64,000 bases of DNA. Source: Blastocatellia bacterium AA13. Lineage in GTDB: Bacteria > Acidobacteriota > Blastocatellia > UBA7656. The notes beneath the pieces were generated by a model. It was not told the DNA's origin. It searched no databases and worked only from the letters and a program-made list of their open reading frames with translations. The stretch lies in NCBI GenBank assembly GCA_003222245.1, contig QHVH01000004.1, positions 67,441-131,440 on the forward strand. Direction: 5' to 3'. Below, piece by piece: positions 1-22,926 of the stretch. How positions within the stretch are numbered: the first letter of the stretch is position 1; each line of letters begins with the position of its first letter. The translations under genes and the position numbers were made by a program.

Positions 1-10
1 CGAATTCACA

Positions 11-349
11 TTGCCGATGGGATACGTCGACGCCGAGGGAACCCTGCATCGCGAAGGAGTGATGCGGCTGGCGACCGCCGCTGATGAAATCCTGCCGTTC
101 AAGGACCCGAGGGTTCAGGGGAATCAAGCCTATCTCATCGTGATACTCCTTTCTCGAGTGATAACCAGGCTCGGCTCCGTTTCGCAGATCAATCCCAAGG
201 TAATCGAAGGGCTATACGCGGCGGACCTCGCATTTCTTCAGGAGTTCTACAACCGGATCAACCGAAATGGAAAAGCGAGCATCGAGGCGTTCTGTCCAAA
301 GTGCGAGCACTCTTTCGAGATGGAGATGTCCGCCGCGGGGGGGTCTTAG
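11..349 (+). CDS. phage-tail assembly chaperone, gpE-like (upstream ORF of an E/E' pair). The reading frame is open to the window edge, so the true start may be ATG 17 or lie upstream.
   Basis: The ORF sits immediately upstream of the putative tape-measure gene. It ends 4 nt after a G7 run. Its -1 frame continues into a conserved FHWPP...W motif, typical of P2 gpE' extensions. Confidence 0.45.
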   Translation: MPMGYVDAEGTLHREGVMRLATAADEILPFKDPRVQGNQAYLIVILLSRVITRLGSVSQINPKVIEGLYAADLAFLQEFYNRINRNGKASIEAFCPKCEHSFEMEMSAAGGS

Positions 350-501
350 GCTACCCCCTCAAGGCGCTGTACGAGGAGGTAGCCTTCGTGGCTTACCACT
401 TTCACTGGCCGCCGGATGCCGTGCTCAACCTGGAACACGCCGAACGGCGGCGCTGGGTTGGCGAGATTTCAGCGATCAATCAACGGATGAACGGCGACTG
501 A
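88..501 (+). CDS. -1 frame extension of the chaperone (gpE'-like). It is expressed only as a fusion after a frameshift near 337-343. The 88 coordinate marks the open frame, not a start codon.
   Basis: Frame 1 is open from 88 to 501 with no ATG. The translation ...VAFVAYHFHWPPDAVLNLEHAERRRWVGEISAINQRMN resembles the GpE-family C-terminal segment. The G7 homopolymer at 337-343 lies just before the frame-2 stop at 347. Confidence 0.4.
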   Translation, partial: NPAVQGPEGSGESSLSHRDTPFSSDNQARLRFADQSQGNRRAIRGGPRISSGVLQPDQPKWKSEHRGVLSKVRALFRDGDVRRGGVLGYPLKALYEEVAFVAYHFHWPPDAVLNLEHAERRRWVGEISAINQRMNGD

Positions 502-516
502 ATACTTACGACGACG

Positions 517-19623: not shown

Positions 19624-19658
19624 CGCACTCTATTGTTGCTAGTGACCGAAGCAGGTGA

Positions 19659-21641
19659 ATGGAGAAGCAGGCTACACAAACCAATAAACAAGTCTCCGCG
19701 GCCCAGTCGCGAAGCGCCAACGGACAGCTCGCTCCTGAACTCATCTCGAATCCCATTCTTCAACTCCAAAAAAAGGCGGGCAATCGCGCGGTGCTCAATC
19801 TGCTTGGTCCTATGGTGGAGCCCCAATCCGCGGCCGATCCGGCAAAGACCCAGCGTCCGAATCTCTCAGCCGCCGCGCTGAGCGTTCAGCGTGTCCCGAA
19901 TGGACGCGGCTCCGAAGCAAGTCCCCAGAATCAAGATTCGCATGCAGCCGCCTCGTTCATAGTTGAGGACAATGCGGAGTCGCTTGCGCACGGCCAGATG
20001 CACAAGAGCGAATTCCTCGCTCAACTTCGCGCGAGTGTCTGCCGAACCGCCGACGAAGAGTTGCAGCGAGCAGGCCAGACCGCCAAAGGCTGCCCCTATA
20101 TCGAAAAGTGGCTCGCTCATTATCGAGACAAGGATCCCGTTCATATCGAACGCGCGCTTCGCAAGTACGCTCCCGAAGCGGCGCGAGCCACGACCGCGCG
20201 AGAATACATTCCGGCGGTCGAGAACCGCGTGCGCCGTGCGATCAATAACTGGGCAAGAACCGGCGAGATCACCGGCGTTCCGGACGAGTTGAAGGGCTTG
20301 ATCCCTGGAGCGGGAGGAGGGCTCGCCGGAATGATCGGCGGCGCGGTGTCGAGTATCTTAAGCGGCATCGGCAGCGCGCTGTCCTCGGCTGCGGGAGCGA
20401 TCGGGGGTGCATTCGCGAGCATCGGACGCGCCTTGTTCAAAGGCAAAGAAGGCAGGGCTCCCGCAAACAACAGTCCTCGAAATATTCAATCGAGATTGGG
20501 GACCGGTCAGCCGCTCGAGGGAAGCGTTCGCTCGCGGATGAGCAGTGCCTTTGGGCACGACTTTTCAAACGTTCGAGTTCATACGGAAACGCATGACGCT
20601 GCTATGTCCGAGAGCCTCAACGCCAGGGCCTTTACCATCGGCAGCGACATTGCGTTCGGCCCGGGCGAGTATCAACCTGGTACGTTAGTAGGCGATGCGC
20701 TCTTGGCTCACGAGCTCGCTCACGTAGTCCAGCAGCGGAACGCTCAACCCGCCGTCGCCGCTCAAGTCGGCAATCACGCAACCGAAGTCTACGAGGCCGA
20801 AGCCGATGTCGCGGCGGCCAATGCCGTAGCCGGGCTTCACGGCCTGCGCACGGCTCGCCCGACCACATCGTTGTTGAGCGCGCCTCGTCTGCAGAGCTGC
20901 GGCAAGAAGCCGCCGCAGATTCGCGTGCCGTTCGGCGCGTCGCTCACCGAGCAGCAGGCGGATCAGCTTCTCGCAAGCGATCCCGTGATCTGGCCTCGCA
21001 TCAAGAACCGAGTCGCGAAAGGGGTCAAAGCCGAAGGGCATACGAGAGAACTGGGCTCCGAAGCATACCTGTACGCGGCGAGGGAAAAGGTGTTCAAGGA
21101 CAAGCTCAGTCTTCGACAGACTTCGTTCCAGATGATGAACGCTGGAGGCTTCGCTCAGGACGGCGAGATATACCTGCATAGGAAGGACGCCGAGATGCTG
21201 GATGTGATGGGAGGCCCCGACCGAGGGCCGGTTCCTATTCCGCCAAGCCGCCATCCGGCCACAATAGTTCACGAAGACGTCCATCTGTACGGTTCGGGCG
21301 CCTGGGTGACTAAAACAGGACGAGCGGGTAACGAAGGCACGACCGAGTACTTCACACGCCGAGTGCTTTCAAAGCAGAAGAACCCGGAAATCGAAGGCGG
21401 AGAGAAGATATTCGAGAGGGATTCGTATCCCGATGAGTACGAGGCCGTGAAGTGCCTGGCAAAGAAAGCCAATGACGAGCTTCTGGCGGACGCTTTCTTC
21501 CTCGGCACAATCGATCCGCTTAGAAAAAAAGTCGGCGAAGCCAAGTTCGATGCGTGGGCCACGGCCATGACCAACGACAATTACAACGGCGCTTACGCCG
21601 CTCTCGGCTCCAAGCCTCCCGCCAAGAAGAAAGAAGATTGA
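19659..21641 (+). CDS. eCIS-associated putative toxin 2: central DUF4157 (HExxH) domain, N-terminal glycine-zipper hydrophobic segment, C-terminal HEDVH-containing domain
   Basis: The N-terminal motif is NPILQLQKKAGNRAVLNLL. The DUF4157 region is GQPLEGSVRSRMSSAFGHDFSNVRVHTETHDAAMSESLNARAFTIGSDIAF...LLAHELAHVVQQ. The glycine-rich segment is GAGGGLAGMIGGAVSSILSGIGSALSSAAGAIGGAFASIG. The C-terminus carries TIVHEDVHLYG. Confidence 0.8.
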   Translation: MEKQATQTNKQVSAAQSRSANGQLAPELISNPILQLQKKAGNRAVLNLLGPMVEPQSAADPAKTQRPNLSAAALSVQRVPNGRGSEASPQNQDSHAAASFIVEDNAESLAHGQMHKSEFLAQLRASVCRTADEELQRAGQTAKGCPYIEKWLAHYRDKDPVHIERALRKYAPEAARATTAREYIPAVENRVRRAINNWARTGEITGVPDELKGLIPGAGGGLAGMIGGAVSSILSGIGSALSSAAGAIGGAFASIGRALFKGKEGRAPANNSPRNIQSRLGTGQPLEGSVRSRMSSAFGHDFSNVRVHTETHDAAMSESLNARAFTIGSDIAFGPGEYQPGTLVGDALLAHELAHVVQQRNAQPAVAAQVGNHATEVYEAEADVAAANAVAGLHGLRTARPTTSLLSAPRLQSCGKKPPQIRVPFGASLTEQQADQLLASDPVIWPRIKNRVAKGVKAEGHTRELGSEAYLYAAREKVFKDKLSLRQTSFQMMNAGGFAQDGEIYLHRKDAEMLDVMGGPDRGPVPIPPSRHPATIVHEDVHLYGSGAWVTKTGRAGNEGTTEYFTRRVLSKQKNPEIEGGEKIFERDSYPDEYEAVKCLAKKANDELLADAFFLGTIDPLRKKVGEAKFDAWATAMTNDNYNGAYAALGSKPPAKKKED

Positions 21642-21648
21642 GGCTCGA

Positions 21649-22926
21649 ATGACGATGCGAGGCGATAAGCTCTTCTTCAAAACGGCCGCGGCCGGACCTG
21701 GAGAGTTGTTGAACAAAGTCTGCGATGCGCTGGCGACGCCGAGGCTTCACTTTCTCGATATCGATCTGCCGGCCTACGGAGTTTTTGTTTGCCTGGGCGG
21801 CGCGGCCGGACTTGTTATGACCTTCGTGATCGCGATTAGTATTCGTCTTCCGCCGGCGCCGCTGTTTATAGCGGCCGTTGGAGGAATCTTTGTAGCGCTG
21901 ACGTTTGCATATCTGACTAAGGTAGTCACCGGAACCGAGGTATATACGTTCTATCACTATCAGATTGCCGTGCTGGCGGGCGCAGGGATGCTGCTCTGGC
22001 TTGTGGGCGAGCCGCCATTGCGAAATATAGACGTGTTGACTCTATCGTTGGGTCTGACACAGGCGATTGGCCGAATAGGATGCTTTGGTGCCGGCTGCTG
22101 TTATGGGAGACCGAGGCGCTTTGGCGTTTGCTACAACCGCCGGCATGCTTCAATCGGATTCCCGAGCTCACTTGTCGGCGTGCGGCTCTTTCCGATTCAA
22201 CTGGTCGAATCGTGTTGGATTGCAATTGTCGTTAGCAGTGGAATCCTGTCGATCGTCCGTGGCGCGGCGCCGGGTTCGGCTCTGGCGTGGTATGTCGTCC
22301 TCTACGGAAGCGGCCGATTCATTTTCGAGTTTCTGCGGCTCGACACCGGCTTTGTTCCCGGAAAATTATCCGAGGCGCAGATCACATCTCTAACTCTGAT
22401 TCTTGCGGTCGTCTGCGCGGAGTTGCGCGGGCTGCTGGTGATGGAATCCGTACACCTGATCTGCGTCGCCCTATTGATTGCGTCGGCCTGCGCGATTCGA
22501 ATGCTTCGAAAAAGAGAAATACCGTTTTCCGCGTCGCACGTGTTCGAAATCGCGGAGGCGGTTCAACGAGCCGAGCGCGATATGACTTCATCACCTGAGC
22601 TCGAACGAATCGCGGTTGAACAAACCTCGCGCGGCGTGTTGATCTCCGCGGGCAGAATTCCCAGGGGCGCTAACTCCTTCTCCCAACCGCGCGACACGAG
22701 ACACCAGATAGCGGTCACCTCTCACCTGTACCCTGTCACTCCTACCCTCTCACTTCTAACCTCTCCGGGCTCCTATTCTTCGATCTTCCACTACTGCGTC
22801 TCGGGCGCGGAGATCGGTGAACGGAGCGCCCTCGCCGTAGCCCGCTTGATAGGGCGCCTACGATGCGGAAGCGGCTCCTTTAGCCTCTTTGAGGGCGATC
22901 AAGCCTTTCACGTGATCATCGATTAG
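21649..22926 (+). CDS. Lgt-family (prolipoprotein diacylglyceryl transferase-like) polytopic membrane protein with a roughly 130-aa C-terminal extension. The signature is divergent.
   Basis: GLTQAIGRIGCFGAGCCYGRP aligns with the Lgt signature G-R-[IL]-G-N-F-x-N-x-E-x-x-G-R, with Cys at the N and E positions. It has multiple transmembrane segments. It starts 8 nt after the effector-2 stop. Confidence 0.55.
   Translation: MTMRGDKLFFKTAAAGPGELLNKVCDALATPRLHFLDIDLPAYGVFVCLGGAAGLVMTFVIAISIRLPPAPLFIAAVGGIFVALTFAYLTKVVTGTEVYTFYHYQIAVLAGAGMLLWLVGEPPLRNIDVLTLSLGLTQAIGRIGCFGAGCCYGRPRRFGVCYNRRHASIGFPSSLVGVRLFPIQLVESCWIAIVVSSGILSIVRGAAPGSALAWYVVLYGSGRFIFEFLRLDTGFVPGKLSEAQITSLTLILAVVCAELRGLLVMESVHLICVALLIASACAIRMLRKREIPFSASHVFEIAEAVQRAERDMTSSPELERIAVEQTSRGVLISAGRIPRGANSFSQPRDTRHQIAVTSHLYPVTPTLSLLTSPGSYSSIFHYCVSGAEIGERSALAVARLIGRLRCGSGSFSLFEGDQAFHVIID

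Follow-up and report, generated by a model that had tools for sequence, protein, structure and literature searches.

The window analysed here is a 64,000-nucleotide stretch of the genome of an uncultured Blastocatellia acidobacterium (Blastocatellia bacterium AA13, contig QHVH01000004.1). Positions 1-22926 of the window and the 9.5 kb upstream of it very probably make up one complete contractile injection system (CIS) locus, in which the gene order is P2/R-pyocin-like and the baseplate of the Tail_P2_I type. The whole locus has ~27 genes in ~32 kb, and the window covers the downstream two-thirds of the injection machine. The CIS itself is a known kind of system, of a lineage that is uncharacterised yet very common in soil. 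Two conserved features of the locus appear to be unreported in the literature searched, namely a predicted -1 frameshift in the assembly chaperone and an Lgt-derived membrane protein.

Identification of the contractile injection system locus

Profile searches with Pfam, NCBIfam and PHROG were carried out, together with PDB sequence comparison and Foldseek. Within 1-22926 there are 19 co-directional open reading frames (ORFs), all on the + strand. The original prediction, made from the nucleotide sequence, had placed a co-directional CIS gene block in baseplate order here. Specific and strong profile matches were obtained for this block, in the order and at the coordinates claimed (Table 1). 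The LysM tube initiator, the spike (gpV), PAAR, gp25, baseplate J, the second wedge protein, the gpI-like protein and the DUF4157 proteins were all supported by profiles, and the hub (gpD) was recognised by families other than the Pfam one.

Genes for sheath, tube, AAA ATPase and cap had been expected upstream of position 1, and all of them are on the contig within 9.5 kb. This region was read from the 86.6-kb ENA scaffold that encodes the 517-1410 protein. It carries, in order, a 104-aa gene with no Pfam match, a WHD-AAA+ ATPase (WHD 9.5e-57 plus AAA 8.6e-31), a DUF4157 gene (eCIS_core 2.7e-22), a HEAT gene, a CxxCxxCC gene, a Pvc16_N cap (DUF4255; 1.8e-23), a sheath (Phage_sheath_1/1C) and a gp19 tube (Phage_T4_gp19 1.7e-49), the last two lying directly upstream of the window. 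The 3′ boundary of the locus was set at 22926 because the genes after the Lgt-like gene differ in two relatives (L069, L070) of the same lineage.

Capsid, terminase, portal, lysis and integrase genes had been reported as lacking. Indeed, none of these families was matched in the block or the 9.5 kb preceding it, nor among the ORFs of at least 150 aa that were scanned in the remainder of the window. The canonical families of the type VI secretion system (T6SS, subtypes i-iii), TssJLM, ClpV, TssA/E/F/G/K and Hcp, were not matched in the locus either; a tape measure, a LysM initiator, a Pvc16 cap and DUF4157 proteins are found in place of that set. The combination that marks the extracellular CIS (eCIS)/Afp-PVC superfamily was recovered: sheath and tube, a baseplate core, a Pvc16_N cap with a WHD-AAA+ ATPase, and DUF4157 proteins, with no head or lysis genes.

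Homologues of the hub number more than 1552; nearly all of the top 120 have lengths of 393-409 aa, and their identity is 66-80%. When one genome was scanned for each species, 67 loci were obtained, mostly from Acidobacteriota. The others were from Chloroflexota, Actinomycetes, Planctomycetota and cyanobacteria; cultured carriers in the scan were Tunturiibacter lichenicola, Nonomuraea, Streptosporangium, Wenjunlia and Sphaerisporangium. The same locus is present in Nitrosococcus oceani. The loci with all eleven markers (cap, sheath, tube, chaperone, extension, initiator, hub, spike, gp25, Cis11a, Cis11b) were collinear without exception (46/46).

Several observations weigh against a complete CIS of the proposed kind. 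The hub match to Pfam Phage_GPD (E 0.0019) falls below threshold, and the AF2 model of the hub, built from a 12-sequence alignment, was poor (pLDDT 46); the Foldseek top matches of this low-confidence model were all hub/VgrG/gp27 proteins, which lends weak support to the assignment. The ORF at 517-1410 had no family match, and a second tube initiator (Cis5/Cis1b) and a spike plug (Cis6) were not found in the locus. The scan for head genes ended ~8 kb short of the upstream end of the contig, so that capsid genes there are not strictly excluded. The locus is known here from its genes alone, and the organism from a metagenome only.

A predicted -1 frameshift in the assembly chaperone gene

The first gene of the window starts 17 nt before it or at ATG 17, and stops at TAG 347-349, just after a run of seven G residues. 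Its product is kept at 60-90% identity in most related loci, where PGAP annotates it as 'phage tail assembly protein'. Positions 343-501, read in the -1 frame, encode VLGYPLKALYEEVAFVAYHFHWPP..., a DUF6760 stretch; a chaperone-DUF6760 fusion would be ~161-172 aa long. The slippery run was compared in 59 related loci and is G7 in 48, G6A in 8, G5AA in 2 and G9 in 1; the glycine codons are therefore fixed at their third positions. After a spacer of 5 nt, nucleotides 349-360 pair with 373-384. Pairing was retained in 97.9% of cells across 30 sequences as against 28-64% with the partner slid, a control of limited power with sequences that are related and coding. Compensatory changes were observed at three pairs of the stem.

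Of 61 related loci, 58 have the DUF6760 stretch in the -1 frame relative to the chaperone. The other three come from long-read or polished metagenome-assembled genomes (MAGs), in which homopolymer errors are a plausible cause. In the cultured Nitrosococcus oceani the run is GGGGGGA, with equal spacer length and the same hairpin, and the start of the DUF6760 gene was set by PGAP at ATT. The second ORF has no independent conserved start, as the PGAP calls use ATT or out-of-frame upstream starts. In the databases, 482 relatives are filed as stand-alone 'DUF6760 family' proteins of 52-86 aa, and the NCBI DUF6760 model for the present MAG opens with 14 aa of out-of-frame chaperone sequence. When the fused chaperone was compared with plasmid/chromid records, 48 were matched; among the matches listed it is found as two pieces in two frames, annotated, where annotation is present, as 'phage tail assembly protein' and 'DUF6760 family protein'. 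The same query against 50,697 phage records gave one weak Bacillus phage match and no close phage source, and a single-sequence PDB search gave no match.

From this conservation we infer that -1 programmed ribosomal frameshifting at G GGG GGG would yield a chaperone-DUF6760 fusion. The two overlapping frames have the classical arrangement of lambda G/GT and P2 E/E', directly 5′ of the putative tape measure gene. The slippery site of P2 is a T run, in place of the G run seen here. Slippage could instead take place during transcription of the G run, but the spaced hairpin favours the ribosomal mechanism. The literature searched holds no mention of DUF6760 or of a frameshifted chaperone in any CIS, the Afp, PVC, AlgoCIS and Anabaena thylakoid-type (tCIS) systems included.

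An E/E' chaperone pair had been proposed for this position. The first part stands with its PHROG 508 match, and the second is found in the -1 frame at 343-501. The +1-frame ORF at 267-524, considered as the second product, was rejected; it has no family match and its translation resembles out-of-frame sequence, whereas the conserved DUF6760 lies in the -1 frame. An assembly error in the G7 run that hides a single ORF was also rejected, the same frame relation being seen in 58/61 independent assemblies, finished isolate genomes included.

In the haloarchaeon Halogeometricum borinquense, too, a DUF6760 gene comes after the chaperone gene and lies in its -1 frame, but this DUF6760 gene has its own ATG, overlapping the chaperone stop, and neither a G run nor a hairpin. 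This tells against a strict need for the frameshift; fusion is therefore not obligatory for the function of the peptide. The pair on Halogeometricum pHBOR03 (L156:19986-20788) is not followed by a tape measure gene, and a chaperone is not among the components in the published description of that system.

The tape measure proposed earlier downstream of the chaperone is supported by its position and by a C-terminal motif, ...QVxRQxDRRxxAxRERxGR, that is strongly conserved across 57 related loci, and not by any family. The body of the protein is diverged, and the ORF at this position has a median length of 274 aa in 61 loci. By analogy with phage tails, its C-terminus may plug into the hub.

An Lgt-derived membrane protein closes the locus

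An Lgt-like gene had been noted after the presumed cargo genes, and the assignment was borne out by the LGT match of Pfam at 21649-22926. In the AlphaFold model (pLDDT 84.8), a membrane part of eight helices is joined to an alpha/beta domain at the C-terminus, and the membrane fold is that of Lgt. The catalytic signature GRxGNFxNxExxG and the HGG motif were not found in the family. All 39 members of the family alignment carry instead an invariant GRxGCxxxGCCxGxP motif, whose E. coli counterpart we take to be GRxGNFxNxExxG (N146, E151). R143, R239 and E243 of E. coli Lgt contribute to phosphatidylglycerol binding and catalysis (PDB 5AZB/5AZC). Counterparts of these residues are kept: R142 and R223 are invariant, and R239/E243 align to consensus R and E in a profile alignment to 5AZB that spans only the PSQLYE...R239...E243 region. 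Identity to E. coli Lgt is 18%, with no match by phmmer and an E value of only 0.19 with the family profile. The E. coli enzyme lacks the N-terminal extension and the conserved ~130-aa C-terminal domain of this family, and is encoded by a housekeeping gene rather than by a CIS-locus gene. A single-sequence PDB search with the whole protein gave no match, and the C-terminal domain had no significant match in PDB. The protein is thus Lgt-derived and was not classed as an Lgt enzyme, because the catalytic signature is replaced in 39/39 members.

The family has 220 detectable homologues of ~380-430 aa. All six gene contexts looked up lie inside CIS loci and adjoin eCIS_core genes. In a metagenome scan, 36 Lgt-like loci were retained, their matches being either full-length or nearest to the CIS-linked reference. 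Of these, 29 also contain DUF4157 or other CIS genes, which amounts to 29/33 of the loci with more than 2 kb of flank. Where the match was restricted to the Lgt membrane core, CIS genes were nearby in 0/44. In the 2021 eCIS survey, Pfam LGT was found only twice in eCIS operons and was not enriched, and no paper joining CIS and Lgt was found in the literature searched.

A second CIS lineage (L071-L074, L083, L093), found in Calothrix sp. NIES-4071, Longimicrobiaceae and soil metagenomes and represented among the six contexts, also has DUF4157 genes on both sides of an Lgt-like gene. Its genes are differently ordered: sheath, tube, a T4_baseplate-domain protein, Pvc16_N cap, AAA+ ATPase, a ~66-95-aa gene, DUF4157, Lgt-like, DUF4157, spike, gp25 and J, with an extra gene of ~115-128 aa between the DUF4157 and Lgt-like genes in most loci. 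The small CxxCxxCC protein (PF03692; L001:4835-5581) recurs in CIS loci of both lineages (also L005, L056, L059, L075, L078, L101). It is often near DUF4157 and Lgt-like genes, and in some loci a HEAT-repeat protein stands alongside. The present copy of the Lgt-like protein has a 35-residue insert in the C-terminal domain (residues ~343-374, window ~22675-22780) that is predicted to be disordered (pLDDT below 50) and is not seen in 38 aligned homologues.

The Lgt-like protein may be the system's own membrane partner, with a role in docking, triggering or releasing the particle. It may instead be an altered lipid transferase. The broader proposal, that the Lgt-fold family is a dedicated CIS component in at least two bacterial lineages (a docking/firing factor or a lipid-modifying enzyme) and that, separately, DUF6760 is the E'-type extension of a CIS chaperone, is put forward as a doubtful one.

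Baseplate, hub, spike and fibre-like genes

Table 1. Coordinates in the window of the features of the CIS locus and the matches on which each assignment is based
Feature	Position	Strand	Evidence
Tail assembly chaperone, 0-frame product (gpE-like)	1..349	+	PHROG 508 'tail assembly chaperone' 1.3e-6; weak Phage_TAC_7
Slippery run GGGGGGG	337..343	+	-1 programmed ribosomal frameshift candidate; conservation
Stimulatory stem-loop (candidate) GGCUACC.CCUC / GAGG.GGUAGCC	349..384	+	RNAalifold consensus; 11 bp, 12-nt loop
-1 frame extension (gpE'-like), 52 aa	343..501	+	Pfam DUF6760 4e-18; weak Phage_P2_GpE 0.028
Putative tape measure, 297 aa	517..1410	+	Position between chaperone and tube initiator, as in P2; conserved C-terminal motif
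Tube initiator with C-terminal LysM (Cis7/Afp7-like)	1488..2168	+	CIS_tube 7.5e-39; weak LysM 0.005
Baseplate hub (gpD/gp27/N-terminal VgrG part), separate gene	2171..3394	+	VgrG_rel 1.2e-19; PHROG 52 7e-17; PHROG 196
Spike (gpV/gp5 OB-fold plus beta-helix)	3404..4075	+	Phage_base_V 9e-19
PAAR spike tip	4225..4509	+	PAAR_motif 2e-19
gp25/gpW sheath initiator (Cis9)	4526..4945	+	GPW_gp25 2.4e-29
Cis11a, large baseplate-J wedge protein, 1140 aa	4942..8364	+	Baseplate_J 1.3e-13; TIGR02243 2.7e-64; PDB 9gtp Cis11 4.6e-54
Cis11b, second baseplate-J paralogue, 766 aa	8369..10669	+	TIGR02243 1.4e-91
Fibre-like F1, Cis13-type N-terminal baseplate-attachment domain	10692..11873	+	CIS13_fam N-terminus 2e-7; paralogy
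Fibre-like F2	11877..12962	+	CIS13_fam N-terminus 2e-4; paralogy
Cis12, N-terminal NHL beta-propeller and P2 gpI/TssG-like wedge core, 740 aa	12966..15188	+	NHL 2.6e-15; Tail_P2_I 1.1e-14; CIS12_fam 7.9e-42
Fibre-like F3, Cys-rich	15185..16030	+	CIS13_fam 1.1e-24
Fibre-like F4, Ig-like domain, Pro/Ala-rich tail	16042..17277	+	Paralogy of long-ORF residues 74-160; weak Qn_am_d_aIII Ig-like match
DUF4157/eCIS_core protein 1	17381..19075	+	eCIS_core 3.1e-29; C-terminal domain unclassified, second HExxH (HELLH)
DUF4157/eCIS_core protein 2	19659..21641	+	eCIS_core 1.2e-30; C-terminal domain unclassified, second HExxH
CIS-associated Lgt-fold membrane protein, C-terminal soluble domain ~130 aa; last gene of locus	21649..22926	+	LGT 1.3e-19

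Among PDB sequences the hub matches Streptomyces and Anabaena Cis8. In 67/67 loci the spike is a gene of its own, in a frame that is random with respect to that of the hub. Stop-codon readthrough fusing hub and spike into a VgrG-like protein was considered, as the two ORFs are in frame here (TGA plus 9 nt). It was rejected, since only 25/67 loci are in frame, the number given by chance, and the spacers vary. Cis11a and Cis11b are paralogous (27% identity over ~500 aa, 8e-37), and the PDB matches of Cis12 are 9gtp_E Cis12 and the pyocin Tri2 protein PA0619. Cis11b of the present locus has a His-rich insert, HGDHHHHHDHDHHH, at residues ~227-243 (window ~9047-9100). The insert is missing from the other 48 homologues checked, which have five or fewer His per 20-residue window, and could be a strain-specific metal-binding surface loop.

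A four-member paralogue family had been described at the position of the fibres. F1-F4 do form such a family, having in common only an N-terminal region of ~90 aa that matches the NCBIfam CIS13_fam N-terminus. F4 probably starts at 16042 rather than at 15856. In the Anabaena system the CIS13-type N-terminal stretch is the baseplate-binding domain of the fibre-like Cis13 (PMC8894136), and according to a 2026 catalogue Tail_P2_I-type baseplates may hold up to four fibres (PMC12923769). The features of the eBAP3/5 group of that catalogue were found in the locus: a Tail_P2_I adaptor, no Afp12-type partner and four flanking fibre-like paralogues (PMC12923769).

The separate hub and spike genes, the 1140-aa J protein and the four paralogues, which had been called unusual, are real; they turned out to be traits of the lineage, mostly already published. 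Split hub and spike, two Cis11 genes and fibre-like genes are conserved in related loci and are thus lineage traits, not damage.

DUF4157 proteins and the gap between them

The locus encodes three DUF4157 proteins, one upstream and two in the window. Their C-terminal regions differ from one another, and no Pfam match was obtained for any of the three. The two in the window had been taken for cargo toxins. Genes with eCIS_core are present at the 3′ end as proposed; the domain is now seen as a CIS core or effector-loading domain rather than simply a toxin (PMC8213781, PMC13277306). DUF4157 has been described as a CIS core domain linked to toxins (PMC8213781). A Streptomyces DUF4157 protein binds the effector Sle1 and was tested for binding to proteins of the spike complex; the authors propose that it links Sle1 to the baseplate core (PMC13277306).

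The gap at 19076-19658 between the two DUF4157 genes is repeat-rich. It holds a 149-nt tandem duplication (19170-19318 / 19319-19468), each copy of which has on its - strand an Acido-Lenti-1 RNA motif (Rfam RF01687) that scores above the gathering threshold. A third copy is on the + strand at 19536-19581, and three short hairpin repeats follow at 19565-19621. Three such motifs within the locus fit an acidobacterial host, and a hub protein identical to the present one is assigned at NCBI to Blastocatellia bacterium AA13. The Acido-Lenti-1 motif has been reported as loosely linked to group II introns, and a reverse transcriptase of a group II intron occupies the place of this gap in the relative L069.

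Relation to characterised systems

The Streptomyces coelicolor system (CIS-Sc; PDB 8BKY, 9GTP/9GTR/9GTS) gave the best PDB matches for the sheath (4e-90) and Cis11 (5e-54), and was also matched by the Cis12 core (4e-9). Both it and the locus described here have a Pvc16-type cap, an AAA+ ATPase and DUF4157 proteins. The CIS-Sc wedge is composed of two Cis11 and one Cis12, "resembling pyocin R2", and the particle is cytoplasmic, with no tape measure and no fibres (PMC12237407); PDB 9GTP has 12 Cis11 chains and 6 Cis12 chains. CIS-Sc uses one cis11 gene twice and has a fused VgrG-like Cis8 (641-643 aa) and a minimal 190-aa Cis12. The present locus differs in having Cis11 as two diverged paralogues, separate genes for hub and spike, a 740-aa NHL-Cis12, and a putative tape measure with a chaperone that is probably frameshifted. 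It also has four fibre-like genes, and an Lgt-like membrane protein in place of CisA.

The baseplate gene order is the same, at 26-53% identity, in the 'archaeal T6SS' CIS of Halogeometricum borinquense (dbeCIS clade IIa): LysM initiator, hub of 342 aa, spike of 247 aa, PAAR, gp25, Cis11a, Cis11b, Cis12 of ~735 aa and DUF4157 genes. A 574-aa sheath, PDB 9EZM, was matched at 1.5e-86 and is of the same length as the product of the Halogeometricum sheath gene. The Halogeometricum locus is split into two sub-clusters and has no tape measure. Its CIS is bound to the cytoplasmic membrane and acts in a contact-dependent, T6SS-like manner (PMC11566945); that mode of action was shown experimentally, whereas for the present locus only genes are at hand. 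The haloarchaeal CIS has been linked to a conserved protein with six transmembrane (TM) helices and a cytoplasmic domain of ~150 residues (PMC11566945). HBOR_RS17580 was taken as this protein, Hbor_38620, by description (six TM helices, ~150-aa cytoplasmic domain, upstream of the cluster). The putative anchor and the Lgt-like protein are alike in layout, a polytopic part plus a soluble domain of ~130-150 aa, but are not homologous. Homology was rejected because hhalign gave the likely Hbor_38620 a probability of 0.3% and the gene next to it one of 4.6%; the likeness is one of analogy only.

The order of phage P2 is FI-FII-E/E'-T-(X)-D, then V-W-J-I-fibres. P2 and R-type pyocins (PDB 6U5B) have a like order, a separate hub and spike and a triplex wedge, but are without the AAA+ ATPase, the Pvc16_N cap, DUF4157 and the PAAR-plus-effector logic; the present locus in turn has no phage head, lysis or regulatory genes. 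The Afp, PVC, AlgoCIS and Anabaena tCIS systems share its core of sheath, gp19 tube, CIS_tube-LysM initiator, gp25, Baseplate_J, PAAR, Pvc16 cap, AAA+ ATPase and DUF4157. AlgoCIS and tCIS also have a large Cis11 (1050-1231 aa), and the N-terminal attachment domain of the fibre-like proteins is as in Cis13 of tCIS. These systems differ in having a fused VgrG-like Cis8 and one Cis11 with an Afp12-type partner per wedge.

Proposed assembly and mode of delivery

The identities of the genes rest on observed matches, and the joint working of their products is inferred from them. The chaperone gene would give a 0-frame protein and, by -1 frameshifting with the help of the hairpin, a DUF6760 fusion. 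Both products would coat the 297-aa tape measure and set the length of the tube, as do P2 gpE/E' or lambda gpG/GT. The LysM tube initiator and PAAR, with trimers of the hub and of the separate spike protein, would make up the centre. The baseplate would consist of gp25 and a wedge of Cis11a, Cis11b and Cis12, after the 2xCis11 plus 1xCis12 wedge of Streptomyces, with up to four fibre-like proteins held on the baseplate by their common N-terminal attachment domain. Sheath and tube would then polymerise and be closed by the Pvc16-type cap, and the AAA+ ATPase may help in assembly or loading. The three DUF4157 proteins would be loaded effectors or effector adaptors, and the Lgt-fold membrane protein a dedicated partner of the system.

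The locus had been read as a tailocin or eCIS and not a prophage. That it is a CIS and not a prophage tail was upheld. The extracellular or tailocin status did not hold to the same extent, as the nearest studied relatives are cytoplasmic or membrane-anchored. We give about even weight to a particle that is released to act from outside. Firing from or at the cytoplasmic membrane of the producer, with the Lgt-like protein as docking or trigger factor, is a serious possibility that we hold tentatively.

In such a membrane-docked (T6SS-like) or cytoplasmic CIS, the Lgt-fold protein may recruit the baseplate through its C-terminal domain or trigger firing, and the 'fibres' and the NHL domain may possibly be anchors rather than binders of a target. 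The cytoplasmic CIS of Streptomyces needs the membrane protein CisA (PMC12237407), and the Halogeometricum CIS is membrane-bound, with an associated protein of the same layout as the Lgt-like protein (PMC11566945). That associated protein, the likely Hbor_38620, is however not homologous to the Lgt-like family, and the topology of the Lgt-like C-terminal domain was deduced only from E. coli Lgt. Docking is also in line with the membrane anchoring mediated by Cis12 and Cis13 in tCIS, with the ties of the Lgt-like family to CIS loci in two lineages, and with the lack of lysis genes in or beside the locus. The tape measure and chaperone pair argue for a different mode, since the Streptomyces and haloarchaeal systems have no tape measure. 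So do the four divergent fibre-like genes, one of them Ig-like, as the 2026 catalogue reads such genes as target-binding fibres (PMC12923769).

Instead of a structural dock, the Lgt-like protein could be a factor for immunity or self-protection, or an active transferase of lipid onto a CIS component or effector; this reading is unlikely. The gene adjoins DUF4157 effector-type genes, the counterparts of R143, R239 and E243 are kept, and the three invariant cysteines at the N146/E151 region suggest altered chemistry and not decay. Cognate immunity, however, sits poorly with C-terminal domains of the neighbouring DUF4157 proteins that vary between loci while the Lgt-like protein stays 35-45% identical. 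The N-terminal ends of these DUF4157 neighbours show no sign of a lipobox or a signal peptide. The extra conserved soluble domain, for which no PDB match was found, also counts against this reading.

A P2-like prophage tail module, or a defective prophage or R-type tailocin outside the Afp/PVC superfamily, is very improbable, since the P2-like order, the frameshifted chaperone with tape measure and the pyocin-like wedge (Cis12 match to PA0619) are outweighed by the Pvc16_N cap, WHD-AAA+ ATPase, CIS_tube initiator and three eCIS_core proteins that phages and R-pyocins are without, by the lack of head, lysis or integration genes in the locus or the scanned surroundings, by the one weak phage match of the fused chaperone as against 48 plasmid/chromid records, and by a chromosomal location in all 46 collinear relatives.

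Other genes in the window

Downstream of the locus, AlbA_2 (Schlafen-type) and HATPase_c_4 domains, normally in one protein, are found on two adjacent ORFs of the - strand at 24936-26370, with a GC dip to 0.51; a regulator gene may have been disrupted or recently acquired here. From 27277 to 56015 runs a large exopolysaccharide cluster, co-directional and unrelated to the CIS. It encodes a Wzy-type polymerase, a Wza-like exporter, a Wzc-like tyrosine kinase, about nine glycosyltransferases, a WecA-type initiating transferase, three FkbM methyltransferases, an asparagine synthase, a carbamoyltransferase and an epimerase. A 172-aa RRM_1 RNA-binding protein (56868-57386) and a 621-aa protein with two PG_binding_1 domains (59026-60891) have no evident link to the CIS.

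Significance

CISs are being engineered as programmable protein-delivery devices, and assembly to a fixed length, loading, and anchoring or release are the points at issue for most lineages. The lineage described here is very common in soil, and has no characterised member. A function can now be proposed for DUF6760, which has been systematically mis-annotated as a stand-alone gene, an error open to correction. As a marker and a candidate membrane partner, the Lgt-like family makes it testable whether the particle is released or membrane-docked. For work on both proposals there are cultured carriers of the lineage: Nitrosococcus oceani, Tunturiibacter lichenicola and strains of Nonomuraea and Streptosporangium. 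If the Lgt-like protein is a dock, it would be a bacterial counterpart of Streptomyces CisA and haloarchaeal Hbor_38620. If it acts as a dock or as an enzyme, this widespread soil lineage would work at the membrane of its producer and not as a released particle.

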